Notes: a model not told the origin generated them from the letters alone. 64,000 nucleotides of DNA from Kofleriaceae bacterium (GCA_965215005.1 CBDCCZ010000037.1:37209-101208), one strand, 5' to 3'. Shown: positions 2,639-58,400, numbered from the stretch's first letter. Program-made: numbers and translations.

Positions 2639-2755
2639 CCGAGTAAACCGAGGTGGGCGGCACACCACTTCACACCCTACTTCACAAACGAGCCTGGGTG
2701 CATTAGGTTCTCATGTGGGACGACGTACGCCCGCAAGCCCAGGGAGACCAGACCA

Positions 2756-3556
2756 TTGAACGCCGTCGACACGCCCTTGACGGGGCCACCACCCGATGAA
2801 GTACCGCTGAGCAGCCCACCGCTGGTGCGGGTCATCGCCCAGGTGCGCTTCCCGCTCATCGCGTCGCTGGCCAAGCGCGAGTTCATCGCTCCGTTTCAGG
2901 AGGCGATTCGCAAGGACTACCCGGTGCTGCGACCCGAGCAGACCCGCGGGGTCGTCTTTGGCCCGCAGGGGGTCACGGAGGCGGGCTCGAACACTGTCTG
3001 GCGCTTTCACGATGCGAGCGCGGCATGGCGCGTCACGCTGGCGCCCGACTTCCTCGCGCTGGAAACCACCAAATACACGAGCCGCGACGACTTCCTCGAA
3101 CGCCTCGAGCGGGTCTTGCAAGCGCTCGAGGACCACGTCGATCCGCGCGTCGTGGACCGCCTCGGCGTCCGCTATATCGATCGCATATTCGGCGAGAACC
3201 TCAGCGTCCTTCGCGAGCTCGTTCGCCCTGAGGTTTTGGGCGTCCTAGGAACCCCAATTTTCAAGCATGCTCGGCACGCCATCTGCGAAAACTCGCTCGT
3301 CCTGCCCGACGATACCGGCCAGGTCACCGCCCGCTGGGGATTGGTCCCGGCATTCGGCACGGTGGACCCCGGGGCGGTCGAAGCCATCGACGAACCGAGC
3401 TGGCTCCTCGATATTGATGTATTCCAGGCCGATACGCACGCGCTCAAGGTGGGCTCAATCATCGCCCAGGCGCGGGGCTTCGCCGAACGCATCTACAGCA
3501 TCTTTCGCTGGGCAGTGACGGACGAGCTTTTGCGCCGGTATGGAGGACGACCATGA
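2756..3556 (+). CDS. TIGR04255-family protein (function unknown)
   Basis: N-terminal PPLVRVIAQVRF, central RLGVRYIDRI and C-terminal LLDIDVF...IFRWAVT match my recollection of the family; TTG start with GGAG upstream. Confidence 0.8.
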   Translation: MNAVDTPLTGPPPDEVPLSSPPLVRVIAQVRFPLIASLAKREFIAPFQEAIRKDYPVLRPEQTRGVVFGPQGVTEAGSNTVWRFHDASAAWRVTLAPDFLALETTKYTSRDDFLERLERVLQALEDHVDPRVVDRLGVRYIDRIFGENLSVLRELVRPEVLGVLGTPIFKHARHAICENSLVLPDDTGQVTARWGLVPAFGTVDPGAVEAIDEPSWLLDIDVFQADTHALKVGSIIAQARGFAERIYSIFRWAVTDELLRRYGGRP

Positions 3557-4266
3557 GCCTGCAGCACCTGCCATCCGAGCCGCCGGTGAGCGACCGCACG
3601 AGTTCTGTCTCCGGCGTCGCAAACCCGCGTGCTCGCACGCCGCTCTCCGTCATCGTGATTAGCGGCGCGCTGTCGCTCTCCGGCACGTCGTCCGCAGAGG
3701 CGACGAGAATTTGGGAGGCTCCGTACGTTCACGAGGCGGATGCCACCACGAGCGGACCGGCTTGGGATCGGGTCGACTGTCAGGTGGCGCGAGAGCCCGA
3801 GGCGACCCGGAAAGCCATCTCCGAGCTGCGCCGCATCTCCGGCCTCACCTGGGAGCAGCTCGGCCAGCTCTTCGAGGTGTCTCGCCGCAGCCTCCACTTC
3901 TGGGCCAGCGGCAAGCCGCTGAGCTGCGCCAATGAAGAACGACTGATGCGTGTTCTTGATATCGTCCGCGAAGCCGATCGCGGTAGCGCTCGGAGCACGC
4001 GAGCCATCCTTTTGGCTGCCAGCGACGGGTTGACGCCGTTTAGCCTGTTGATCGCGCAGCGATTCGAGGAAGCTCGCAACCGTCTTGGGCGCGGCCGATC
4101 GCGACCAGCTCCAGCACTCGCCGACCTCAGCGAGAAGGCCACGGCGGCGCGCAAACCACTTTCGCCTGAGGAGCTCTTCGATGCAAAGAGCGAACGCGTT
4201 CACCACGAGCCCGGTCGTGCGCGGGCCGCTCGCACCGTGAGGAACAAGCGGCGTGGAGACTCTTGA
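3553..4266 (+). CDS. XRE-like HTH DNA-binding protein (possible antitoxin/regulator)
   Basis: ISELRRISGLTWEQLGQLFEVSRRSLHFWASG HTH; ATGA overlap with the upstream stop. Confidence 0.75.
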   Translation: MSLQHLPSEPPVSDRTSSVSGVANPRARTPLSVIVISGALSLSGTSSAEATRIWEAPYVHEADATTSGPAWDRVDCQVAREPEATRKAISELRRISGLTWEQLGQLFEVSRRSLHFWASGKPLSCANEERLMRVLDIVREADRGSARSTRAILLAASDGLTPFSLLIAQRFEEARNRLGRGRSRPAPALADLSEKATAARKPLSPEELFDAKSERVHHEPGRARAARTVRNKRRGDS

Positions 4267-5101
4267 CGATGCAGGCCGCAAGCAGGTCGACGAGAAACTC
4301 CAGACGTGGCGTCAAGACGACTGCGTCGTCGGTGAGCAGTGGTTTCTGTTTCGCACCGACTCCGAACGTCCGCTAACCGCTGACGGCGCGGTGGCGGCCA
4401 CCGATGGAAGCGACAACGCCGAGGCGGAAGTGAGCGGCTTCGCGCTCATTACCCAGACCTGCGATCTCGCCCGACGCTGCGGTGAACGGCCATTTGCGGA
4501 GCTCAGCCCTCTGGTCGAAGTAGAGGATGCGGTCCTGCGCGAGGTTGAGCGGGGTCGACGGCCGAACTACGCCTTCATTCCGGGCGTAGCCGAACAGCAC
4601 CTCGTGGCCGACCTCGATCGCGTGATGACGGTCGAGAAGTCGGTCGTGGCCCGATGGCAGCGGGTCGAGGGGTGCCGGACGGACGCTGAGATCCGTCGCC
4701 TAGCACTGGCACTGACGCGCAAGCGGGCTCGGGCTGCGTTCCCCGACGACCTCGTCGCGTTCGCCTCCCCGCTCGTGCGGCGGATGTCGTCGAAGCACGA
4801 CAAGCACAGCGACGAAGGGCGAGCCCTGCGGTCGCTCCGTGAGATCCGAGTTCGGGCGGCGCCGTCTTGGGACGCCGACGCGGTAGAGCTGATGTTCTGG
4901 TTCATTCGGGACGACGACGCTTCAACCTTCGAGGAGCAAAGCTGGGATTATTACCTCGACGCGTGGCTCGAGCGCGTACCGACGTCCGGCCGCTTCGTCG
5001 CCGTCACTGGCGCCGTGCAAACGCTCGAGGACCTGACCGCCCGCGACTACGTCGATAGCGATCAGCTCGACCTGGACCACCTATCGACGCGAGGAGAATA
5101 G
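4253..5101 (+). CDS. Hypothetical protein with ITQTCDL motif (possible toxin/effector)
   Basis: 282-aa ORF overlapping the upstream gene by 14 nt; coding-like composition. Confidence 0.7.
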   Translation: METLDDAGRKQVDEKLQTWRQDDCVVGEQWFLFRTDSERPLTADGAVAATDGSDNAEAEVSGFALITQTCDLARRCGERPFAELSPLVEVEDAVLREVERGRRPNYAFIPGVAEQHLVADLDRVMTVEKSVVARWQRVEGCRTDAEIRRLALALTRKRARAAFPDDLVAFASPLVRRMSSKHDKHSDEGRALRSLREIRVRAAPSWDADAVELMFWFIRDDDASTFEEQSWDYYLDAWLERVPTSGRFVAVTGAVQTLEDLTARDYVDSDQLDLDHLSTRGE

Positions 5102-5524
5102 GTATCTCGAGCGGCTTTTCGGGCGCCTTCGAGGTGCTCCCATAGAAGTACTCAGCCTCGCCTCATGACGTGAGCTCCGCCGCGACCATGGGCGTATCGA
5201 GCTCGCCTGACGCGAGATTTCGGTCCCGGTTGGGCCTGCGTCAACATGGCCTCGCGTAGGCCAGGTGCGCCGAAGAGACGCGCAGGGCCCGAGTCTTACC
5301 CACTTCGAGGTCGAGCTATGCCGCCCCTCGCCAGAAGATAGGGAGAGCGGGACTCGTCACGGCGTCTTGCCGCTGATGGCCGCCATCGTCGGGTAGATTT
5401 CACCGCTCGCGGAGCTCAGCGAGAAGGGCGTGGCGGCGGCGTTGCTGATCTCGAGGTGTCGGGATCAACGATAGCTCTGCTTGATGACCCCGTGTGTGTG
5501 GTCGGTGCTGATCGCGCCGAGCCG

Positions 5525-6700
5525 TTACTCCACCACGACAGGAGCGCAGGTAGAGACGCCGGCGCCGACGATGTAGGGGACGGCGTCGTTGCCGAAGGTG
5601 TCTTCGGCGACGGTCTCGAATTGGTCGGTGGCGGGGTCGACGCGGATGACACGCGAGGTGTCGCCTAAGAATTCGGGTGTAGTTATGAAGACGTAGAACC
5701 GGCCGCCCCATTGCGCAAAGGCCCAGCCGCGGGGGCTGGGGAACGAGCCCGCGTTCCATTGTTGGCCCGCGGGTTGGCCGGTGGTTTTGTCGAGCTCGGT
5801 GATGTAGCTGCTCGAGCCTGGAAAGTAGCCATAGAGCTTGGCGTCGCCGGTGCCGGTCAGCTCTGGCGGATTCTCGGCACTGCTCAGGTCCTGCAGGTGA
5901 TTGACCGCTAGGGTCGTGGTGTCGATGAAGCCAATCTTGGTGTTGCTGAGCTGGCCGCCAGAGGCAAACTTGCTGCCGGAGACGTAGAGGCGCTCTTCGG
6001 TGGAGCCGGGCGAGTCGCTCACGAATCCCATGCCGAAGACGTCGTAGTCCTGTTGCTGCGGAACGAAAGCGGTCTTGGTGCAGGTGGCGGAGTCGGTGGA
6101 GACGTGGAAGATCTCGCCGCTGGAATAGAGCACCCAGGCGGTCGCGTCGCGATCCACGGACATGGAGAAGGGCGTGGCAGTGCCGCGGTTGGGGTCGAGG
6201 CTTGGGGCTGGGTCGCAGTCGAGGTTTCCGATGCGCTCGAAGCGGTTGGCGTCGTTTGCGGGCTCGAAGCGGTACAGCGTGTTGGCGTTGTCGACGACGT
6301 AGATGAACTGCGAGGCATCGTCGCCGCAGGTATTGCCGGTGCTCGTGCCATCGGTGCAGACGCCGTTCTGGCAGGCATCTGGGCACGATTCGATCACGTC
6401 GCCAGGAGCTCCGTCGGCGTCGCACGCCACGACTTGGGTGCCCACGCAGATGGAGGTGCCGGGCGTGCAGGAGCCATTGCCACCGGTGCAGCCAGTGCTC
6501 GGATCACAACTCTGGCCACCGTCGCAGGTGTCGGTGAGCACCAGCTCTTCGCCGTCGCAGGTGAAAAACTCGTCCCCTTCGCAGCGGGTTTCGCTGCCCG
6601 AGCAGGCGACGGGTTCCTGGTTGCCGCCGCCGGAGTCGGATGCGGGGCCGCAGGCGGTGAGGGCGATGGCGCCCAAGGCGCAGAAGATCCGGTGCATCAT
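5525..6700 (-). CDS. Cys-rich myxobacterial lipoprotein with C-terminal beta-propeller-like domain
   Basis: Lipobox LTAC; Cys-rich N-terminal repeats; C-terminal IVGAGVSTCAP. Confidence 0.75.
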   Translation of the reverse strand: MMHRIFCALGAIALTACGPASDSGGGNQEPVACSGSETRCEGDEFFTCDGEELVLTDTCDGGQSCDPSTGCTGGNGSCTPGTSICVGTQVVACDADGAPGDVIESCPDACQNGVCTDGTSTGNTCGDDASQFIYVVDNANTLYRFEPANDANRFERIGNLDCDPAPSLDPNRGTATPFSMSVDRDATAWVLYSSGEIFHVSTDSATCTKTAFVPQQQDYDVFGMGFVSDSPGSTEERLYVSGSKFASGGQLSNTKIGFIDTTTLAVNHLQDLSSAENPPELTGTGDAKLYGYFPGSSSYITELDKTTGQPAGQQWNAGSFPSPRGWAFAQWGGRFYVFITTPEFLGDTSRVIRVDPATDQFETVAEDTFGNDAVPYIVGAGVSTCAPVVVE

Positions 6701-13084: not shown

Positions 13085-14614
13085 ATGCTCGAGCATGTCG
13101 CTCTCGGCCAAGCGCGATTCATGACGCCGGGGGTGGCGCCGGATCCCCGCGGCGTGATTCTCGGCCGCTACGCGTTACTGGTGTTTCCCACCCTGGAGGG
13201 GGTGGTCTCGTGGTTGCGCTTGTATTCTGCAGAAGCATCGCTCGACGAGTTGCTCACCGGGCTGTCTATCCATCGCGTGGTGACGCCGCTGATGAGCCGC
13301 GGGATGGTCGTCCAAATACCAGCTTCATCAAGCTATACGATCGACCGCGCCGCGCGTTGCGCTCGCCTGATTGGCGGCACCACGTACACCGGCACCAGCA
13401 AGCACTACGTCAAGTACCGCGATGATCGCTCGCCGTATGGCTACGATCTCGTCGAAGTTTCAGCGCTGCCACAAGGCGCCGATTACATGCTCCACGGCCT
13501 GGACTTCACCCAAACCTATGCCCGCGAGGGCGAGCTGTCGTTTGCGCAGCTGCTATTTCGCTTGTCGCTGCGCCGCGTACCCGGCGGCGCGCGATTGGGC
13601 AGCGACGAGAAGAGCGAGGTGCTGCTTACCGTGCAGCGGGGTCTGGGCGAAGGCGTCATACGATATCTGTGGCGCAATCGCGTGGCCGCCGAGGTTGGTC
13701 TGCTCGAGCCGAAAGCAAAAAGCTCGCTCGGCGAGCTCGGCCGCGACCCGAGCTATCTGGTGATGCGCGTGCGCAACATCCCGGAGCGGATTCTGGCGCT
13801 GTTTCTCGCGACCCCGGGAATCGATGTGTTTCGCCCGGCGGGCCCTGGGGTCGCGGTGGAGCTCGGCTTTGCGCACGTCATCGACTTATCCTCGTGCGCA
13901 AGCGTGTTCAGCGACGACAGCTTCTTTCTGTTTTGGGGCCAGCAAGATCGCGTCGATCAGCTGCCGGGACCGCTGGAGCTCGCCAACATCGAGAATCTCA
14001 CCGGCATCGAGATCGAGCTCGAAGAACCCAAGACCCGCAACAGCCTCGATCTCTCCGCGCACGACTCGGTAGGGGTTGGGGTGCGGCTGGCGCCGTCGCT
14101 GCAGTCGCCGCGCAACGTCATCGCGTCGCTGGTGCCATTGGCGCAGGCGGACCTGGTCAAGCGATTGATCTATTTCCTGCCGCCGACCAGCCTGCGCGGT
14201 CATCGCGTCGCCGTTACCGATCGCGGGATCTTGCTGATGGGCAGCGACGACCTCGACGTGGTGCCGCTTGGGCAGTTGCTTTCCGAGCTGGCGCCGGGCC
14301 TGCTGGTGCCGCTGGGGATGGACCTGGTGCCGCGCGTGGCCCCCGAGGTTCTGGGACGAACGCTTGGGCATGGCGCTGGGGTGCTCACTGTATTTCCTCA
14401 CGACGAGGTACCGTTCCAGATCAGCGACGCGGCGCTGCAGCCGCTCGAGCGTCGCGCCCTCGCCAAGATAGAGGTCGCGCGCGCTACCGCTCGAGACACC
14501 AGCGTGGCCGAGGCAGACGCGCCGATGGTGGTGAATGACCCGATTGGGCGGTTCTCGCTCTGGGGCTTTCCGTCCCTGCCCACGACCAAGGCGTTGCCGC
14601 CCAAAGGCGGCTGA
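13085..14614 (+). CDS. Hypothetical protein, first gene of MoxR-vWA operon (possible ternary-system partner domain)
   Basis: 509-aa ORF, co-oriented with and tightly spaced to the MoxR/vWA genes. Confidence 0.75.
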   Translation: MLEHVALGQARFMTPGVAPDPRGVILGRYALLVFPTLEGVVSWLRLYSAEASLDELLTGLSIHRVVTPLMSRGMVVQIPASSSYTIDRAARCARLIGGTTYTGTSKHYVKYRDDRSPYGYDLVEVSALPQGADYMLHGLDFTQTYAREGELSFAQLLFRLSLRRVPGGARLGSDEKSEVLLTVQRGLGEGVIRYLWRNRVAAEVGLLEPKAKSSLGELGRDPSYLVMRVRNIPERILALFLATPGIDVFRPAGPGVAVELGFAHVIDLSSCASVFSDDSFFLFWGQQDRVDQLPGPLELANIENLTGIEIELEEPKTRNSLDLSAHDSVGVGVRLAPSLQSPRNVIASLVPLAQADLVKRLIYFLPPTSLRGHRVAVTDRGILLMGSDDLDVVPLGQLLSELAPGLLVPLGMDLVPRVAPEVLGRTLGHGAGVLTVFPHDEVPFQISDAALQPLERRALAKIEVARATARDTSVAEADAPMVVNDPIGRFSLWGFPSLPTTKALPPKGG

Positions 14615-14628
14615 GCGCAGGGGCTCCC

Positions 14629-15783
14629 ATGGCTCGACGCAGCGTCGCGGAGTTTTTGCAGCACTTCGTGTTGCCGCTCGTACGCGGCGGCCCATTGCGG
14701 GTCGGGCGGCCGCTCGATCCCGACGACTTGCGCGCCTTCGAAGACGACCTGCCGCACGCGAGCGTCGAGCTGGTAGCCGTCGACGAGGCGCGCACTGCCG
14801 TACTCTCTGAGCTGGTGGTGCGCCCGCCCGCCCTCGTCCTCGACGCCGATGAGCTGCGTCTCGCGGCAGCGCTGCACAACGTGCTGTTTCTCGTGCACCC
14901 ACGCGCTGACGAGGTCTGGGTGAGCGCGCGCCAGCTTCGCCGCGTCGCCACCCACGCCCAGGAGCTGGCCTCGCAGCCGTTGCGGCCACACCGCCGGCGA
15001 CTCTTGGCGCGCCACGCGCTGCTGCACAATGTCTTCAACGTGCGTCGGACCGACCTTCGGGTGTCGTGGTGGACTGGCAGCGCGCAGTTCTTCGGCCAGG
15101 AGCCGCCATCGCGACTCACGTCGTGGAAGGCTGTGCGCCGGGTGCAAGAAGAGACCAGTGTGGCGACTTACGGCGATCTTCTGGCCTCGCCGGAGGCCCA
15201 AGCGGTGATGGCAACGCTGCTTCGGCGCAGTCCGATTACGCAGCTGTGCTCGGATCATCCGAGCGCGCCGGCGCTGCATTGGGAAGACGCCACGCCGGTG
15301 TTGCGCGATCTCGAGCTGGCGCGGGCGGTGGCGTACCAGGTGTTGCGGGGCAGCGACCCGGAGGTCATGGCGGCCGCTCCGGCGCGCCTAGCGGCGGCGT
15401 TCGAGCAGCTTCTCGAGCGCCACGCGCCGGAGGAGGAGCTGCGGGTGGTGGTGGCGTTCCTCGTGCACCTCAACGTGCTCCTTGCGGTGGGGGAGCTGCG
15501 CCAACGCAATTGGGCGGCGAGATCGCCTCTGCTCACCCGCATGTTGGCCGCTGAGCGTGCCGGCCAGCGCCCACGGGGCCTAACGACGTTTCTCGCGCTC
15601 CCCAACGCGATGGCTGCTGTCGACGCGCGGGTTGCTTTGCCCCCAGGCCTACTCGATGAGCCGATGCTGCGGCGGCGATGGCAGGCGCATCGCAGGCAAG
15701 TTGCCGAGGAGCTCGGCGAAGCGTTCATCGAGGCGCTCCATGGCCGTCTGCGCCGGCACTTCACGCCGCCGGTGTCTGGGTGA
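14629..15783 (+). CDS. Hypothetical alpha-helical protein in MoxR-vWA operon
   Basis: 384-aa Leu/Ala/Arg-rich ORF starting 14 nt after the previous stop. Confidence 0.7.
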   Translation: MARRSVAEFLQHFVLPLVRGGPLRVGRPLDPDDLRAFEDDLPHASVELVAVDEARTAVLSELVVRPPALVLDADELRLAAALHNVLFLVHPRADEVWVSARQLRRVATHAQELASQPLRPHRRRLLARHALLHNVFNVRRTDLRVSWWTGSAQFFGQEPPSRLTSWKAVRRVQEETSVATYGDLLASPEAQAVMATLLRRSPITQLCSDHPSAPALHWEDATPVLRDLELARAVAYQVLRGSDPEVMAAAPARLAAAFEQLLERHAPEEELRVVVAFLVHLNVLLAVGELRQRNWAARSPLLTRMLAAERAGQRPRGLTTFLALPNAMAAVDARVALPPGLLDEPMLRRRWQAHRRQVAEELGEAFIEALHGRLRRHFTPPVSG

Positions 15784-15890
15784 GGTCGCCGAGCGGTCGA
15801 GCAGTTCGCGGGCCATTCGGTAGCGTCGCTGCCGGCGAACATTTAGACTCGCGCACAAGCTCTGATTTGTAGGGTTTTCTCGAAGCTACC

Positions 15891-17102
15891 ATGTCAAGTC
15901 CTCCGCCCACACCGCCACGACCGACCTCGGCGCTCGACATCGCGCGCGTGAGCTCGCACTTCCAAGACGTCGCCCGCACCTTGGGCAGTCACTTCCTCGA
16001 CAAGCAAGAGATCATCCGCCTGATGCTGATCTCCGCGATTGCGGGCGAGCACATGGTCATCATCGGGCCGCCGGGAACTGCGAAGTCGGCGCTGATCGCG
16101 ATGTTTGCGCGGCTCATCGATGCGACGTACTTCGAGTATTTGCTCACGCGCTTCACCGAGCCCAACGAGCTATTCGGGCCGGTGGACATCAAGGAATTCC
16201 GCGAGGGGCGCTACCGGCGGCGCACCGACAACATGCTCCCCGAGGCTGAGATTGTCTTCTTAGATGAGATCTTCAAGTCCAACTCAGCGATCTTGAACTC
16301 GCTGCTGCATGTCATCAATGAGCGGCGATTCTCCAACGGCCCAACCGTGCAGGAGGTGCCGCTGTTGTCGCTGTTTGCGGCCTCCAACGAGGTTCCCAAC
16401 GATGAGAATTTGTCGGCGATGTTCGACCGATTTCTCCTCCGCGCGTTGTCGGACAACCTCGACAGCTATCACTTTCATGAGCTGATGAACCGCGGCATTG
16501 CGCACGAGGTTCGCAAGATGACGGGACGCTCGGCGGAGCTCCATCCGCTCACCAGCGGCGCGGAGCTGCGTCGTTTGCAGGCCACCTTCGATCGGTTCAT
16601 GGCGTTTCCCGACGACTTCATGGCCAAGTACAAGGGGCTGATTTTTCAGATTCGCTCTGAGGGCATCACGGTGTCCGATCGCCGCGCGGTCAAGCTTCTC
16701 AAGCTGTTTGCCGCGTCGGCGGTCTTCGATGGTCGCACCACCGTCGCCGATGGTGACTTCTTCGTGCTTCGTCACATTTGGAACAATCTCGACCAAGTCG
16801 AGCTGCTCGAAGAAATCGTCAATCCGGTGGTAGATGCTTACTATCGCGACCGCCCGGAGGAACGCCGCTTCATCGGCCCTCAGGCCAGCCTCGAGGACCT
16901 GCTTTCCGAGCTCGGCCTGATTCGCGAGCTCCTCACTTCGAGCGCCGAGCTCTCCGATATCCAGCTGTTTTCGCAGCTCAAGAACCTAAACGAAATCAAG
17001 GCGGCGCTAGCGGTCATCGGCAACGAGACTGCGCAGCGCATGATCCGCGAGGTCGATCAGCTCCTCGAGAGCGTGTTTGCTTCGTCCAAGTTTGGCATGT
17101 AG
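15891..17102 (+). CDS. MoxR/RavA-type AAA+ ATPase
   Basis: GPPGTAKS Walker A, YLLTRFTEPNELFGP, FLDEIFK Walker B, ASNE sensor, FDRF. Confidence 0.93.
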   Translation: MSSPPPTPPRPTSALDIARVSSHFQDVARTLGSHFLDKQEIIRLMLISAIAGEHMVIIGPPGTAKSALIAMFARLIDATYFEYLLTRFTEPNELFGPVDIKEFREGRYRRRTDNMLPEAEIVFLDEIFKSNSAILNSLLHVINERRFSNGPTVQEVPLLSLFAASNEVPNDENLSAMFDRFLLRALSDNLDSYHFHELMNRGIAHEVRKMTGRSAELHPLTSGAELRRLQATFDRFMAFPDDFMAKYKGLIFQIRSEGITVSDRRAVKLLKLFAASAVFDGRTTVADGDFFVLRHIWNNLDQVELLEEIVNPVVDAYYRDRPEERRFIGPQASLEDLLSELGLIRELLTSSAELSDIQLFSQLKNLNEIKAALAVIGNETAQRMIREVDQLLESVFASSKFGM

Positions 17103-17119
17103 CGAAAGGCGCGTGCATC

Positions 17120-17482
17120 GTGCTCAAGGTCTGCATCTTTGACGACGTGGTCGCGGCTCGCGGCGAGACGTTTCACATACCAGGGCTCGAGGTCGAGGTG
17201 CACCGCCACGCAGATGAGGCCGTGAGCCTGTGTGGCCAGCACGGGTTTGACCTCGTGTGCATGGACTTTGCGATGGGGCAGGGGCGCAAGACCGGCGCTG
17301 AAGCGACGCGCGCGCTGCGCGCTGCTGGCTTTGCCGGCCGCATCATCGGCATCTCTAGCGATCCGGCGGCCAATGCTGCCATGCGTGCCGCCGGAGCCGA
17401 CGACTGCCTGGCCTCCAAGGCGCTGTTGCGGTCGTATCTGGTGCACGTGGGCGAGCAGGATGCGCCCGTGGTGCCTCGCTAG
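17120..17482 (+). CDS. Single-domain response regulator (receiver)
   Basis: VCIFDD acidic pocket, VCMDFAM phospho-Asp, IIGISS, GADDCLASK; GTG start. Confidence 0.75.
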   Translation: MLKVCIFDDVVAARGETFHIPGLEVEVHRHADEAVSLCGQHGFDLVCMDFAMGQGRKTGAEATRALRAAGFAGRIIGISSDPAANAAMRAAGADDCLASKALLRSYLVHVGEQDAPVVPR

Positions 17483-17485
17483 ACC

Positions 17486-18967
17486 ATGCCCATTCCCGCG
17501 GAGTTGCGACGTTCGTTTCTCGCGCGCCAGGTGGGCACGCTCGCGCTCTCGCACGTGCAGATCGACAACCCGATGGCGGCGATTCGCGCGGCAGCGTGGT
17601 GCAACTCGATGGCGCGGCTGGGCATTCACCTGCCGCTGTTCGTGGTTCACGACTTTGGGGTCTTGTTCACCACTCCGCGAGGCACCGCGGGATGGCGCAT
17701 CGCCCCGCGGGCAACCGCCTTGGCGCAAATTCGCCCGCCGGCAGCTGTGACGCCGCTGCTCGAGAAGTATGTGCAGCTGTTGCACAATGTTGCGGGCTCG
17801 GAGGTGGTCGAGAAAGTCTCCGGTTGGCGGTTGCGCGATGAGTTGGTGGCGGTGCTGATGACCCGTGCTCTCGGCGATACCTACAATCGCTGGCGCGATC
17901 GCGCCAAGGCCGCTGGTGCCGGCGAGCTTCCCCTCGACTTGAGTGTGTATACCGACGTCGACCCCGCCGAGCATTTCCTCGAGTTCGACTCCAAGCCGCT
18001 GTGGGCATTCCTCGAGCACCTCGCCAGTCAGTCGCTGCACATCTACACCAGCGTCGAGCTCATCGACTTGGACACGGTGCGCCTGTTGGGAATGTTCAAG
18101 GAAGATACGGCTCACGGCTCCGAGGCGCTCGGCAGCGCGGTGGATCTGGTCGATTTGTTTGCTGCGTTGGGATCACCGGAAGCTCACGATGTAGCCAACT
18201 TTTCCCTCGAGCTACTTCCCTCGGTGCTCGAGACCAAGCGAGCCTCAGGGGTGCAGTCGTTTGCTGTCGATGGCTACGCCTCGGTCGAGCGCAGCGGCAA
18301 CATCGACTCGCTCATGCTTTCAGAGCTGGCGTACGACCAAGAGCTCTTCGAGCAGAAAGTGGTCGACCAAGAGCTCCTCTACTATGGCCATGAGCGCGAG
18401 CGCGAGGATGAGAAGCGGCTGCAATACATCTTGGTCGACTCTTCGGCCTCGATGCGCGGCAAACGGCAGGTGTTCGCGCGCGGGCTGGCGCTCACCCTGG
18501 TGAAGAAGCTCTCGCTCGAGGGCGATGAGGTCTGGTTTCGCTTCTTTGATTCGCGGCTCCACGAGCTGGTCAAGGTGCAGCGTTCGGGGCAAGTGCCGGT
18601 GCCGTACCTGTTGTCATTTCGTTCCGAGCGTGGCCGCAACTATGGCAAGGTATTTCGCCAGCTGCTCCTAGAGCTCACGCGGCTCGGACGCGAGCAGCGC
18701 CGGCAGGTCGTGGTGTACATCATCACGCACGGGCAGGCCCATGTTGCCGCCGAGCTGGTCGCGGCGATGGCGCAGCAGGCATTTTTGTACGGCATCATCA
18801 TTCTGCCGTCGCAGGAGGTGTCGCTCGAGTTTCTGCCGCTGCTGCATCGCTCGCAGATCGTCGAGTCGACGACCTTCGTGTCGCGCGCGGGCCGGCGTGA
18901 TCGCGCTCTCGATATCGTCACCGACACTTCGCAGTCGCGACGTCGCGGCCGCGGCGAGGCGCTCTAG
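17486..18967 (+). CDS. vWA-domain protein (MoxR partner, ViaA-like role)
   Basis: ILVDSSASMRG MIDAS motif; C-terminal YIITHG. Confidence 0.85.
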   Translation: MPIPAELRRSFLARQVGTLALSHVQIDNPMAAIRAAAWCNSMARLGIHLPLFVVHDFGVLFTTPRGTAGWRIAPRATALAQIRPPAAVTPLLEKYVQLLHNVAGSEVVEKVSGWRLRDELVAVLMTRALGDTYNRWRDRAKAAGAGELPLDLSVYTDVDPAEHFLEFDSKPLWAFLEHLASQSLHIYTSVELIDLDTVRLLGMFKEDTAHGSEALGSAVDLVDLFAALGSPEAHDVANFSLELLPSVLETKRASGVQSFAVDGYASVERSGNIDSLMLSELAYDQELFEQKVVDQELLYYGHEREREDEKRLQYILVDSSASMRGKRQVFARGLALTLVKKLSLEGDEVWFRFFDSRLHELVKVQRSGQVPVPYLLSFRSERGRNYGKVFRQLLLELTRLGREQRRQVVVYIITHGQAHVAAELVAAMAQQAFLYGIIILPSQEVSLEFLPLLHRSQIVESTTFVSRAGRRDRALDIVTDTSQSRRRGRGEAL

Positions 18968-18969
18968 CC

Positions 18970-20778
18970 GTGGCTCGCGATACCTACGCCTCCATTGAAA
19001 GCACGGCAGACCAGGCAGAGAGTCTGGTGGCGCAGGGGCGATTTGCCGATGCCGAGCGGTTCTACCGCGAGCTCATCGCGCAGACGCACGTCATCGACTA
19101 CGAATACGACGATTGGCTTCGCCGGCTGGCTGAGCTCTATCGGCAGCTCGGCCGTCGCCGCGAAGCAGGCTACATCTTTCTCTACCTGCACTACTTCGAC
19201 ACCGCTCGGGAGAGCTTCTCCGGCGACGATGGTCGCGCCGAGCGGGCCCGTATACTCGAGGTCGAAAAGCGCTGGCAAGAGGCGGCTGAGCTCTATCAAG
19301 AGGCTGACCGGCCCGTGCATGCGGCCGTCTGCTTGGAAAAGGCCAAGCGTTTTGCGCAGGCAGCGGGGCTTTGGGAATCGCTCCTCAAGTATCCTGGACT
19401 GCGCGATCGCGATTATGAAATGGCGCTAGTTCATTTCAACTATGGCATGGCGATGTCGCGGCTCGATGGGGAGGACGCCGCCGCTCATCGGGCGTTGGTC
19501 GATAGCCAGCGGCGCCTCGAGCAAGTCGCGGACGATTTCGAGACCCGCGGCGAGCGCGAGCGCGCGTTCGACTGCTATCAAATCCTCCTGAAGCTCGGCA
19601 AAGAGTCGGGTCAGTTCGAGAATCTCGCCGAGGGCTATTTGAGCTGCATCCGGGTGCTCAAGGAAGACAACCTCAAGTTCTACGTTCTGCAGTACTACGA
19701 AGACTTCGTGAAGCTCGCGCTCGAGCGCGGTGAGCTGCACGCGGCAGCGACGCTGCTCCAGGAAGCAGCCGAGTACTCGGTGCGGGCCGGCTTGCCTTAC
19801 GATCGCCGCTACACCGCACAAGCGGCCGAGACCTGGGTGCGATGTGCAGATAAACACCTGAGCGAGGGCCTTCCCGTAGAGATGGTCGAGAACGCGCTCC
19901 TGGCGGCAATCAGCTGCTACTCGGCGGTGGGCCACTACGTCGAAGTGCGGGGGCTATTCGAGCAGCTCGCCGAGCTCGAGCTCGCCGAGAAGACCCGCGA
20001 GCGCTACTCCAGCATCGCCCATCGCTACGCGGAGGCGAGCCCGCAAAGCGGCGATGCTCCCGCGTTTCCCGACTATCTAAAACAGCAGCACGCCTACGCC
20101 GATATTTGGTTCGTGGATCTCCTCGAGTGGGAGCTCGGTGGTGACCCGCAGCGGGTGGCCTCGTCCATCATCGGCGATCTTCGCTATCCCAATGGCATCC
20201 GGCGGCGCGCGCTGGTGGTGGTCTTGAGCTTGGCCGACGCCGCGCTCAGAGGCGAAGAGACAGCGCCGGAGACGCTCGTTCGGGTCGCGGATCTGCTTGG
20301 AGAGCTGCAGTCCTACGCCGCGCTGAACCCGCTGGAGCGCCTGTATGAGCACGCCGACCCACGGGTGCGGCGGGCGGCGGTGCGAGCGCTGAGGTTCTTG
20401 TTCTTCAAGCGCGCGTTCATCATCGTGCGTCGCGCCCTCGGCGACCGCGACGCCGCGGTGCGTGAAGCTGCCCTCGAGGCGCTTGGCGGGCTGCATTTCC
20501 CGCACGCGTTCAATCCTCTCGCGGGCATCTATCGCGACTCCGAAGATCCGCGGGTCATGGCCGCTGCGCTGGAATCCATCGGCAAGATACAGAGCATCGA
20601 GGCCGGAGAGCTTCTCGTGAGCGTGCTGCGGCAAGAAGAGGGAGGGCTGCGGGAGGTCGCGAAGCGCTCGTTAGCCCAGCTCGACAACGCCGACGTGTTC
20701 CCAATCTTGCGGCAGAACTTCGAGATTGAGACCAATCCCGAGGTCAGGGAGCTGCTCGGCGAGCTGCTGCGTCGATGA
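18970..20778 (+). CDS. TPR-like helical repeat plus HEAT repeat protein
   Basis: AAELY/AAVCLEKA helical repeats; C-terminal DPRVRRAAVRAL, DAAVREAALEAL and DPRVMAAALESI HEAT repeats. Confidence 0.8.
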   Translation: MARDTYASIESTADQAESLVAQGRFADAERFYRELIAQTHVIDYEYDDWLRRLAELYRQLGRRREAGYIFLYLHYFDTARESFSGDDGRAERARILEVEKRWQEAAELYQEADRPVHAAVCLEKAKRFAQAAGLWESLLKYPGLRDRDYEMALVHFNYGMAMSRLDGEDAAAHRALVDSQRRLEQVADDFETRGERERAFDCYQILLKLGKESGQFENLAEGYLSCIRVLKEDNLKFYVLQYYEDFVKLALERGELHAAATLLQEAAEYSVRAGLPYDRRYTAQAAETWVRCADKHLSEGLPVEMVENALLAAISCYSAVGHYVEVRGLFEQLAELELAEKTRERYSSIAHRYAEASPQSGDAPAFPDYLKQQHAYADIWFVDLLEWELGGDPQRVASSIIGDLRYPNGIRRRALVVVLSLADAALRGEETAPETLVRVADLLGELQSYAALNPLERLYEHADPRVRRAAVRALRFLFFKRAFIIVRRALGDRDAAVREAALEALGGLHFPHAFNPLAGIYRDSEDPRVMAAALESIGKIQSIEAGELLVSVLRQEEGGLREVAKRSLAQLDNADVFPILRQNFEIETNPEVRELLGELLRR

Positions 20779-54798: not shown

Positions 54799-55497
54799 TT
54801 AGCGGTACGGGGATTGCTTGAAGGTCCAGCCGAGTGCACGCAGCTCGTTCATAAGCATGTCGACGATCACCTTGTTGACGTTGAGCCACTCAGTGTGCGT
54901 GGCACCCGAGGGCGTGATCACGTCGACCATAGGCGGCTCAATCACCTCTCCGAACAGCGTAGGGCCGAGTCCCAGCGTGAGCCTACTGCCGCGGTCGAGG
55001 TTGGTGCCACAGACGATCTGACACCCGAGGCCGTCGTTGTTCACGACGAGCCACCACGTCTGAGCCCCGTCGAGTTCCGGTGCCGGCTCGAGATGGTAGG
55101 CGGGGCTAATGGCACCGTCCTCATTCATGACGATCAGCTCCTTCGTGCGCGCGCTCGGCGGCAGGATGATGCGGACGCGGTCGGTGCCGGCACCACAACG
55201 AATTCCGGTAAACTCCCATAATCCTTCTGCGCGCCGAACCGCCTGTTCAACCGCCAGGACCAGTTGTGGCATCAGCGGAAGCTCGGTCTTCACGTTGATG
55301 CTGAACGGCGCCTCACTCCCGAGGTCGAGCCCCCAATCTTCGATACTCATCAGGTACCCGACAAAATGCGAGGGACGCCGCCAGGACCAAGCCGCGGCGA
55401 GAGTCGCGCACAACAAGCCGGGACCCTTATCGGCGTTAGCCGCCGTGAGCATGCGTGCGGGAGCTCGAATCCGAATGTCGTAGGCGTCAGCGGTCAC
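54799..55497 (-). CDS. Putative immunity protein
   Basis: GTGA overlap with the toxin stop, GGAG RBS, visibly less GC-biased codons, no recognised family. Confidence 0.65.
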   Translation of the reverse strand: MTADAYDIRIRAPARMLTAANADKGPGLLCATLAAAWSWRRPSHFVGYLMSIEDWGLDLGSEAPFSINVKTELPLMPQLVLAVEQAVRRAEGLWEFTGIRCGAGTDRVRIILPPSARTKELIVMNEDGAISPAYHLEPAPELDGAQTWWLVVNNDGLGCQIVCGTNLDRGSRLTLGLGPTLFGEVIEPPMVDVITPSGATHTEWLNVNKVIVDMLMNELRALGWTFKQSPYR

Positions 55498-58400
55498 GGG
55501 TTCACTACTCTCCATTCGTTGCTGGCGTCGCGCCGAAACGTTCGACTGATTCCACCATCCATGCGGATGATGACCTCGAATACTCGTCGGGCCCCTGGCG
55601 GCTTGTATGTGTGTGTCATGTTTCGCAGGTCGCGCAGCGATCGATCGAACCAGTCACGTCTCGGCCCTACCTCCCGCCAGCCGCCCTCGCCATCGCGACG
55701 CTCCACACGTAAGTTGCCGGCATCATCGACTCGGTTTCTGGAGTCGCCACCACCAGGCAGCCCCTGCGCCGACCGTAGCTCGGCGTCAAAGATGCCATAC
55801 ACTACTACCCGATAGTCGCCGTCGGGGCTGCTGTCGAACTTCTTGAGACCTTCACTTATTTGTGAGCTGAGATCAGCGGAGCTTCTGACCGGCGCCCGCA
55901 CGCTCTTTACCTCGGTCATCTGCCCGGATCCCGTCCGCAGATCGGCTTCACGTCTACCGGTACCGGTCCGATGCTCGCCAAGGATTAGTGTGTCGTTGTC
56001 GGCTAGGGCTGCGAGTTGGTGGCGGGCTTCGACGAGCTCGTTGAGCAGGTCGGCGCGCTGGTGGGCGGCGTCTGTGGTGTCGGCTGTGATGCCGTTGATT
56101 TCGGCGAGGACGGCGTCGATGTCGCGGACGCGTGGATCGCTGGCGAGCTGGTGCAGTAGCGTCGGCAGCTCGGCGGCGTCGATGCCGCGGGTGGCGAGGA
56201 TGGCGACGTCTTGTTGGGCGCGATCGAGGAGGCGGCCGGCGTCGCTGCCGCTTCCGCCGCGTTCGGCGTAGGCGGCGACGGCGTCGGCGCGGGTGGCGCG
56301 CGCGTCACTGCCGGCAGGGGCTTCTTCGAATCTGCCGTCGACGAAGCGGCGCGGCGGCAGCTCGGCGCCGTGCGCATCGAAGCGTCGCGCGCGTCCCACC
56401 GAGGGGACGCCGCTGTCGTCCAGGACCCAGCGATAGCCTTCGGGGATGTCGTAGGCGTCGGGGCCGTAGCGAAACTCCGCTTCGAGCGCAGCGGTCCAGC
56501 CGCTGGGAACCGGGTCGAGGCGATGCGCTGCGTGGCCGCGCTGCGCCAGCAGCTGCTGATGGCGAGGCGAGGCGGCGCGCTCGGGTGCAATCGGTACGGG
56601 GGAGTCGACCGCGGGCGCCTCGCGGGGGTGCTCCCCGGGTCGCGAGCCCATCTGCGCCTGAGCGCCGTGCACGGTGCCGTCGTCATCGGCGCGCGCGGCG
56701 ACGAAGCCAAGGCCCGGCGCGAGGTCGTCGAGGTGCGAGGCGTGCTCGCGGATTTGCGCCTCGAGGCTGGCAATCTGCAGCTCGATCGATTCGCGCGTGG
56801 TGTCGTCCAGGCCGTGCTGGCTGAGGCGCTCGCGAAACTCCGCGACCATCTGCGGCAGCTTTTGCAGCTCGAAGTGGGCTTCGAACGCGCGGCTCCCAGG
56901 CGGAATACGGCCGCCGCCGCGCTTGTACGCCTGCACGCGCTCGAGCAGGTTGCGCAGCGAGCCGGTGAGGCCTTCGTAGCGACGCATCGAGCGCAGCGTG
57001 GTCTCGTGCATCGCCACCCACTCGAGCGACGCGCTTCGGCCGACCTCGAGCCGCACGTTGGTGATGCCGCCGAGCGCGCCCACGTCGTAGGCGATGCGCA
57101 CGTCGCCGCCGTCGATCCGCACCACCTCCACGGCGAGCGCGCGGGCCACCATGTCGACGTCGGCGTCGGCCATGGCGCGCGCGCCGCGCTGCGACACGGC
57201 ATCCTTGAACGCAGCCCGATTCTCAGCCTGGCGATGCGCGTGAATCTCGCCGATATGCCCCATCGCGCGCATGGAGCCGCGCATCAGGCCCTGCTGCGCC
57301 AAGATGTTGCCGTAGGCGCTCGCCCACGCGTTGGCGGCCTCCTCTTGCACGCGCGCAAGCTCGGCCCGCAGACCCGGCAGTCGCGGGTCGGATTGGTTGT
57401 CGTGCTCGAGCACTTCGACCTGCGCCGCAAGCTCGGCCGCCTGCCGAACCGCGCCAAACCGCACCGTCTGGATCTCTTCCATGGCCTGCTGATTGAGCAG
57501 CACCACGTCGCCGGCCAGCTCTAGCCCCTCCATCACGTAATACAGCCGTGTTCCCAGCTTTACGGTCCGCGTTGCCTGACCGACGTAGGGAAGGATGTCG
57601 ATGGCCAGCTGACCGATTCCCATCCACACCCGTTCGGTGGTGAGGGTGTCGCGCTCGTAATACGCCACCATCTGCGAGACGGTTTCGATGCCGTTGTAGG
57701 CAACCAGTGCCGGAACCACGACCGGCGCCGTGTAGGGCGCAAAAATCACCACCACCGCGCCGGCGATGTTGACCACCACTTGCACCGACGGGTCCCATAC
57801 GGTGCTGCGAACAACCTCCCAGGTGCTGTTGCAGTCGAGGGTGAAGCCAAGAAATCGGCCCGTCGAAATTCCGGCCTCATCGAGGGTTTCGACGCGCACG
57901 CTCATCTGCCCCGATGGATACGATTTACTGAGCTCGACGAAGGTGGCTTCGAGAGCGTCGCGAAACGTTGGACGCACCTCCGAGTAGCGACTGTTGTCGT
58001 TGTCGAAGGCCTGCGTGGTGTCGTGGATGCTCACGCGCCACGCTTGTCCCTGCCGCTGCGCCGTTGCCACCAGCGATAGCTCTTGTGAGGTCGCGTTGCT
58101 GGCGCGCGCCAGGTACGCGCCCTGAATATGCAAAAGCTGCGCTCCCGCGTCCTGCTCTTGTCGGATCCGTTGCTCTGCTTCATCCAGCGAGCGCAGATAC
58201 TCAGCGGCCCACTGCAGCGCTCGCGGATCGGCGCGCCCCGAGTCGACGTATCGCTGAATGCGCTCGCGCTGACCGCGAAGGCGGTCGAGGTGCTGCGGCG
58301 GCAGCATGCCAGGCCCGCATTCGATCGGCAGCGCGCCTTCGACCACCGTGCCGGTCGAACGCGCCGTCGAGTCGGTCCAGCTGCTATCGGCAAATTCGTA

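Follow-up and report, generated by a model that had tools for sequence, protein, structure and literature searches.

A conserved three-gene cassette led by a TIGR04255 protein is a candidate anti-phage toxin-antitoxin module with an inverted layout

We analyzed three coupled genes, here called open reading frames (ORFs) 1 to 3, at positions 2756-5101 of a 64,000-nucleotide stretch of DNA (the window) from a Kofleriaceae bacterium (GCA_965215005.1, CBDCCZ010000037.1:37209-101208). The genes constitute a real, mobile three-gene module, which encodes a TIGR04255 protein, a helix-turn-helix (HTH) protein and a protein with a MazF/PemK/CcdB-type barrel. Our best reading of this cassette is an anti-phage module akin to toxin-antitoxin-chaperone (TAC) systems, with an inverted gene order and a gatekeeper that has no detectable sequence kinship to SecB. 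Specifically, we propose a phage-triggered toxin-antitoxin (TA) module, probably self-repressing, in which ORF1 would grip the N-terminal arm of ORF2, and ORF2 would restrain the MazF-fold protein ORF3 until infection. We judge this mechanism about equally likely to be right or wrong.

All three genes lie on the plus strand: ORF1 at 2756-3556 (266 amino acids, TTG start), ORF2 at 3553-4266 (237 amino acids), and ORF3 at 4253-5101 (282 amino acids). The overlapping stop and start codons named in the original prediction, an ATGA at 3553-3556 and a 14-nucleotide overlap at 4253-4266, can both be read in the sequence. A GTDB scan with ORF3 gave 199 confirmed loci, the best 80 of which were kept for locus analyses. 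ORF1 and ORF2 directly precede ORF3, in order, in 78 of these 80, and the three genes thus co-occur as had been anticipated. The four-nucleotide overlap of ORF1 and ORF2 is kept in 65 of the 78 loci, and an overlap of 11-17 nucleotides between ORF2 and ORF3 is likewise found in 65. Because the order and the overlaps are kept across loci, the arrangement is beyond chance. One of the two exceptions (L059) is cut at a contig edge, and an ORF1-ORF2 pair ends another contig of the same genome. In the other (L084, 29-2078), an intact ORF3 lies directly downstream of a 385-amino-acid transposase-like ORF.

ORF3 relatives number 1854 among 8000 candidates scored and form 1522 clusters at 50% identity. 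By their record titles, the GTDB loci come from Planctomycetota, Gemmatimonadota, Acidobacteriota, Gammaproteobacteria, myxobacteria, Cyanobacteria, Actinomycetota, Chloroflexota and Deinococcota. Six plasmids carry an ORF3 match. In all five plasmid regions that were read, TIGR04255 is encoded two genes upstream, and four of the five also show homology to ORF2; these copies adjoin integrases, relaxases and transposases. One IMG/VR contig carries the whole trio. Separately, ten phage-collection records (H7-H16; Acinetobacter, Burkholderia and one unassigned) contain distant ORF1 relatives. In one locus (L069, 2098-3486) a single 463-amino-acid frame spans ORF1 and ORF2, which is either a fusion or a lost stop codon; a true fusion would favor direct contact between the two proteins. 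In three others (L067, L093 and L096) the third gene is truncated or interrupted with ORF1 and ORF2 still open, which would fit the third gene being the costly member of the trio.

ORF1 was correctly assigned to TIGR04255 by the original prediction (165.4 bits against a cut-off of 30, E = 2e-48, positions 2-250 of 252 of the NCBIfam model). It has no Pfam family at E values up to 1, and PADLOC and Protein Data Bank (PDB) sequence searches give it no name. Searches of the ESM Atlas returned only unnamed or TIGR04255 clusters, and a viral fold search returned TBP-like matches and one unnamed protein (A0A515MGR4, E = 1.5e-8). The structure model, built from 103 sequences with a predicted local distance difference test (pLDDT) value of 94.6, is a curved beta-sheet with a conserved polar pocket formed by Q29, G137, R139, D219 and D221. 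These five residues and R135 are unchanged in all 62 close relatives. Across the family, only P22, Y107, R139, Y140, D219 and F250 are near-invariant. Matches to known folds are all middling and none stands out: the spermine synthase N-domain reaches Z 8.5 over 96 residues, AdoMetDC and TBP score lower, and the longest matches are to guanido kinases and McsB (Z 7-8, root-mean-square deviation (rmsd) about 4.2, 170-190 of 266 residues, identity 7-12%), in a range (Z below 8) that is common without kinship. The halves of ORF1 align with SecB at an hhalign probability of at most 0.3%, the SecB profile being shallow, and show no significant similarity to each other. SecB is not among the listed fold matches, a list that does not exclude unlisted families. 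A gatekeeper or sensor role for ORF1 is likely, judging from the models described here and below.

ORF2 consists of a variable N-terminal arm, an HTH at approximately residues 88-135, a small helical domain and a conserved basic tail. The XRE-like HTH of the original prediction is weak in the single sequence (HTH_3 E = 0.17, below the cut-off; Xre_ParS E = 0.017) and is upheld by the family profile, which matches MbcA (E = 0.0094). The family model NF049845 gives 15.2 bits against a cut-off of 90, and its threshold is thus missed. The tail is basic as had been described. Its supposed disorder, however, was misplaced: among 68 sequences P202 is invariant, and R200, P205, L208, R224 and R230 are at least 90% conserved, so that the tail is partly conserved and disorder probably belongs to the N-terminal 80 residues. 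In these sequences the HTH forms the conserved core, and T45 and T65 (91% conserved each) are the exceptions in an otherwise variable N-terminal stretch of 80 residues.

These two threonines are also where ORF1 is predicted to bind. We co-folded two copies of ORF1 with residues 1-85 of ORF2 in three runs with three controls. The score was 0.68 (runs of 0.68, 0.71 and 0.65), and the best of the three controls scored 0.00. Among solved complexes, 116 of 157 reach the mark used for such jobs, as do 2 of 215 mismatched pairs; both figures apply only roughly to the present job. The runs share at least 73% of contacts, with a pLDDT of 46-53 for the ORF2 partner. T45 is placed on the first ORF1 copy and T65 on the second, in the same pocket (residues 27, 29, 137, 139, 221 and 223). 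Thus the best contacts join two threonines that had been picked as conserved before the job to ORF1 residues invariant in all 62 close relatives, and ORF1 is predicted to bind the N-terminal arm of ORF2. Across loci, Q29 in ORF1 is accompanied by a threonine motif in the middle gene in 23 of 30 cases versus 7 of 41; these counts include related, non-independent loci, and the motif had been picked after the fact.

The suggestion that the N-terminal part of ORF3 forms a PemK/MazF-like barrel agrees well with its structure model (pLDDT 95.1, 136 sequences). The best fold match is 8zws (Z 10.1, rmsd 2.9, 102 residues aligned), Foldseek matches MazF at E = 5e-4, and the nine top fold rows are all of MazF, CcdB or Kid types. 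This first domain (residues 15-162) carries WxQGD and QTCD motifs and matches CcdB at Z 8.3. A second domain (residues 163-278), which the original prediction did not mention, resembles minimal nucleotidyltransferases and an immunity protein at Z 5-7 (8hhj, Z 6.9; 8xeh_E, Z 6.3; 2rff, Z 6.2); residues 159-278, read from the whole-protein model, give Z 5.2-6.3 with several minimal nucleotidyltransferases, which is the middling range. GS and DxD are the catalytic motifs of minimal nucleotidyltransferases. Neither is found in the second domain of the 136 sequences, which has the strands EIRVxAxPxW and VxLxFxFI. ORF3 has no Pfam, NCBIfam or PADLOC family, and a PDB sequence search gives it no name. 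The conserved residues are those of WxQGD, G62, those of QTCD, R74, D120, T126, K129, R156 and R160; among 81 non-redundant relatives, C70 is conserved in 100% and D71 in 96%. On the strength of the modeled fold, ORF3 is likely a toxin.

Upstream of ORF1 we identified a direct repeat, TTCACA-N6-TTCACA, at 2669-2686 on the plus strand, which likewise had not been mentioned in the original prediction. It is the single match in the window and the single exact copy in the whole 6.2-Mb genome. Among the 75 related loci that have 250 nucleotides of upstream sequence, the repeat is exact in 69 and present in 72 when one mismatch is allowed, and it is absent elsewhere in the 2.44 million strand-bases of those loci. 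The second TTCACA copy coincides with the -35 site of a likely promoter, with a candidate -10 hexamer (TAGGTT, 2704-2709, plus strand) 17 nucleotides past it that falls under the promoter-scan threshold. A less strict promoter pattern finds matches in 45 of the 78 upstream regions. The three loci that lack the repeat are L016, L019 and L023, and in L016 the start of ORF2 is also altered. In a related HTH clade, whose recognition helix differs, three loci (L142, L146 and L154) instead carry a TGTAAA repeat with the same 12-nucleotide period, and two of them have the helix motif RPTIYAW; no shared repeat was seen in the remaining loci of this clade. In viral contigs the motif is not diagnostic by itself, as TIGR04255 adjoins 1 of 121 matches (flanks were fetched for only 80), and no RNA holder occurs among the matches listed. 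From its position and conservation, the repeat is likely the operator of ORF2. ORF2 itself is a likely antitoxin and autorepressor.

Proximity to defense genes, proposed as a check on the cassette, is commoner than expected among related loci although not seen for the present copy. From the 80 loci we selected 33 that had long flanks and were well spread, and scanned 17 with Pfam and 16 with PADLOC. Ten of the 33 lie within 4.5 kb of restriction-type genes for methylase, specificity or restriction functions (L012, L024, L036, L040, L054, L066, L070, L072, L074 and L082), versus about 2% expected per locus from a hand tally of about 42 restriction-type loci in 26.8 Mb of five genomes. In L070 and L074 the cassette lies between hsdR and hsdSM, in L082 between the DrmA and DrmMI genes, in L054 among BREX-type genes, and in L012 among DISARM-like genes. 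Other defense-type neighbors are an AAA protein with an S8 protease (L021) and AbiEi (L071). No restriction-type gene was found in the other 23 flank sets. At least eight TIGR04255 proteins are among the predicted novel defense genes in Table S4 of DefensePredictor (PMC13092281). Among the papers listed by our literature searches, none described this system, and none in the library searched names TIGR04255.

TIGR04255 is encoded in 46 of 301 genomes of the same phylum and in 49 of 401 genomes of the class of a further genome (G301), a tally in which one unpublished genome is counted. We surveyed 78 TIGR04255 loci (29 + 20 + 29) other than the present one and that of the unpublished genome, using heuristic gene calls. 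The TIGR04255 gene is usually followed at a short overlap or gap by a middle gene, and then by a third gene. The third genes encode 36 MazF-like proteins (by an iterated hidden Markov model), four PIN, two HNH, one RES, one YhaV and one DUF7689 protein; by eye only, another 18 are ART-like and eight papain-like, one is of no recognized type, and six were uncalled or miscalled. We take R..S..H to be an ART-like and H..C a papain-like pattern. As neither group has a solved relative or a Pfam family, these two labels are unconfirmed and rest on these motifs. The eight third genes of L113, L114, L117-L119, L130, L135 and L141 share a histidine ahead of a cysteine (GxTCxTF) and match nothing in Pfam or the PDB; by this pattern they may be an unnamed papain-like effector family, possibly permuted.

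Middle genes cluster along with their own third genes. Judged by eye, middle genes may encode signal peptides. HTH-type middle genes pair with two-domain MazF-like proteins, whose C-terminal domains are related (hhalign 95.7%), and short middle genes pair with proteins of approximately 180-215 amino acids that do not have this domain. A quickly built tree of ORF1 requires at least 23 changes of partner class, where the lowest possible number is 5 and shuffling gives 38 on average; the partner classes are clustered yet repeatedly exchanged. HNH third proteins match Septu PtuB models. The C-terminal third of the PADLOC candidate PDC-M32A matches the middle genes of five ART-like cassettes (L109, L133, L150, L159 and L165). 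Only middle genes of some ART-like loci match this candidate, and a full-length copy is present in 0 of 151 genomes. As relatives of ORF1 precede several unrelated toxin types, cassettes of this kind probably form a family of phage-triggered toxin switches that has yet to be described.

The original prediction had likened the layout to TAC modules with a non-SecB third component. This comparison stands insofar as neither Pfam nor hhalign relates ORF1 to SecB and ORF1 is predicted to bind ORF2; the gene order is another matter. In TAC systems the TA pair is followed by the chaperone gene, and the antitoxin bears a C-terminal aromatic chaperone-addiction (ChAD) arm (10.1101/2024.02.24.581848). 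HigBAC, CmdTAC (PD-T4-9) and MqsRAC, as presented in that source and in PMC11618068, share with the cassette three coupled genes and exchangeable TA pairs. Their third protein, too, is constant and engages short repeated motifs on a disordered arm of the antitoxin, as is predicted for the cassette, and an anti-phage role, which has been shown for TACs, would be shared by the cassette. Here, however, the gene for the third protein comes first, followed by those for the likely antitoxin and the likely toxin; the arm lies at the N-terminus and centers on threonines rather than being C-terminal and aromatic; ORF1, at 266 amino acids, has no Pfam or profile match to SecB; and the likely toxin is a MazF-fold fusion. 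The cassette is TAC-like in layout and predicted contacts and has neither sequence likeness to SecB nor a ChAD arm.

Other systems share parts of the cassette. The barrel of ORF3 (residues 1-162) resembles those of MazEF, PemIK and CcdAB. However, ORF3 differs from these toxins in having no Pfam match, a QTCD motif with an invariant cysteine, an extra nucleotidyltransferase-like domain, and a third gene beside it. MazE antitoxins are of the AbrB or ribbon-helix-helix type, in contrast to the HTH partner of the cassette. The HTH region of ORF2, and the position of its gene upstream of the toxin gene, recall the Xre/MbcA/ParS antitoxins of MbcTA, RES-Xre and ParST, although with sub-cut-off scores, a MazF-fold rather than a RES partner, an 80-residue N-terminal arm and a conserved C-terminal tail. 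Compared by layout rather than sequence, the cassette is also like DS-42 (PRO1), a validated Escherichia coli system of a 238-amino-acid unknown protein, a 190-amino-acid unknown protein and a nuclease-type MBL effector, with a four-nucleotide overlap of genes 1 and 2 (PMC13092281). Its effector is different, and its first gene (WP_249925928.1) is annotated as hypothetical rather than TIGR04255. A MazF-like domain also occurs in GajC of the validated anti-phage system Type II Gabija, which has a helicase partner, a split MazF domain and no TIGR04255 (PMC13069673).

These observations suggest the following mechanism. The HTH of ORF2 would bind the direct repeat over the -35 element and repress the operon. 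Two molecules of ORF1 are predicted each to seat one threonine motif of ORF2 (T45 or T65) in the same conserved pocket and, by analogy with TACs, this grip would keep ORF2 soluble or safe from proteases. ORF2 would otherwise bind ORF3, possibly through the extra domain of ORF3, which is found only with HTH-type middle genes. A phage protein competing for the ORF1 pocket would, again by the TAC analogy, free ORF2 for destruction, and the released ORF3 would attack RNA or translation and abort the infection. Across the family, ORF1 would be the constant part and the antitoxin-toxin pair the exchanged one.

Several points weigh against this proposal. Every mechanistic step is computational, and toxicity, ORF2-ORF3 binding, a chaperone role of ORF1 and phage protection are predictions. 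The fold of the ORF2 arm in the co-fold is uncertain, with a pLDDT below 50 in two runs, and the model had alignments as input. The ORF1 pocket is charged and enzyme-like and would equally fit an enzyme. The threonine motif, which was defined post hoc after the sequences were seen, was seen in 20 of the 62 distant middle genes, versus a mean of 8.5 and a maximum of 17 after shuffling; since these are few and mostly in MazF-linked loci, the threonine grip is not necessarily family-wide. MazF of Klebsiella pneumoniae depends on Arg28 and Thr51 (PMC8086154), and the corresponding columns in ORF3, mapped by motif position and not by superposition, are variable (61) and hydrophobic (88). With no clear counterpart to this pair, the ribonuclease activity of ORF3 is suggested by its fold alone. 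The orphan ORF3 of L084 is intact, and no ORF2 was found in its incomplete genome. The cassette is rare in viruses, with one IMG/VR locus, and ORF3 was not found in phages. No restriction-type gene is present among 40 further called genes of the window, which places this copy outside any defense island, and PADLOC has no model for ORF1, ORF2 or ORF3.

The charged pocket leads to an alternative that we consider unlikely, in which ORF1 is an enzyme, such as a divergent guanido-kinase- or McsB-like protein, that modifies or cleaves ORF2 at threonine or serine motifs, with the mark deciding the fate of the antitoxin. The longest fold matches of ORF1 are to these very proteins, whose catalytic domain has a similar sheet topology over most of ORF1 (rmsd about 4 Å), and a pocket with invariant Arg, Asp, Asp and Gln predicted to seat a threonine would suit such chemistry. 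However, the resemblance lies in the Z range common without kinship, at low identity and with no support from sequence: there is no Pfam match to a kinase family, the NEED motif was not found in ORF1, and hhalign to one bacterial guanido kinase is not significant, a weak test with a single sequence. Six family-wide near-invariant residues are also few for an ATP site. The chemistry of ORF3 invites a different and distinctly improbable explanation, that the module is defensive or regulatory and ORF3 is not a ribonuclease. Its barrel would instead bind a protein target, or its invariant cysteine would do other chemistry, and it may be harmless without a phage cue. The CcdB barrel binds gyrase. 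The match of ORF3 to CcdB, the conservation of C70 and D71 alongside variable or hydrophobic MazF positions, and the intact orphan in L084 would all fit. Against this, the top fold matches are MazF ribonucleases, the conserved basic residues R74, K129, R156 and R160 could bind RNA, sister cassettes carry other nucleases, and the catalytic positions were mapped by motif.

The module may instead have no role in phage defense, being a selfish addiction or stress TA module on mobile DNA that ORF1 merely stabilizes, which we think very doubtful. The sporadic spread of TIGR04255, the mobile-element neighbors of the plasmid copies, the housekeeping context of the present locus and the 23 of 33 flank sets without a restriction-type gene all accord with it. 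However, the roughly 14-fold excess beside restriction-type genes, the cassettes inside defense operons, the repeated exchange of effectors, including those that match Septu PtuB, and the model-predicted defense scores of TIGR04255 proteins (PMC13092281) argue for the anti-phage reading.

In the window the cassette lies between two genes that each start with a lipobox-like signal, as the lipoprotein assignment of the original prediction implies: one at 1475-2638 on the plus strand, which encodes a PD40 propeller by Pfam, and one at 5525-6700 on the minus strand. The GC content of the cassette is the same as that of its flanks, and no att-like or terminal repeats were found around it. Neither a canonical promoter (the promoter scan gave 0 sites) nor a convincing terminator was found at the cassette. 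The approximately 420 nucleotides between ORF3 and the downstream lipoprotein gene (5101-5525) have no fully contained ORF of at least 80 amino acids and are possibly a gene remnant. The remainder of the window holds mostly housekeeping genes. At 13085-20775, seven genes run on one strand and include a HEAT-repeat protein and a MoxR ATPase (15948-17099) of the MoxR-vWA-beta-propeller ternary type (PF20030, E = 1e-74). This run is probably a MoxR-vWA-beta-propeller ternary system; such systems are conflict-related. On the minus strand, 55497-60701 is a 1735-amino-acid ORF with no Pfam family at E = 1e-12.

For the family as a whole, we tentatively propose, with less confidence than for the cassette itself, that TIGR04255 is a second, SecB-independent phage-sensing platform, not yet described and present in about one genome in eight of the two sampled groups. 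It would grip, and possibly modify, peptides, and through N-terminal-arm motifs arm many unrelated TA pairs with MazF-like, PIN, HNH, RES, RelE-type, ART-like, papain-like and probably, as in DS-42, MBL effectors. The proposal assigns TIGR04255, a common family so far without a function, a role that can be tested, and it suggests a modular class of anti-phage switches for which PADLOC 2.0 has no models. Its predictions are precise, with named interface residues on both partners, an operator sequence, and a deletion expected to make the TA pair independent of ORF1. The MazF-fold domain with its invariant cysteine may reveal new chemistry. If the proposal is true, chaperone-type phage sensing would have evolved twice, with mirror-image layouts.

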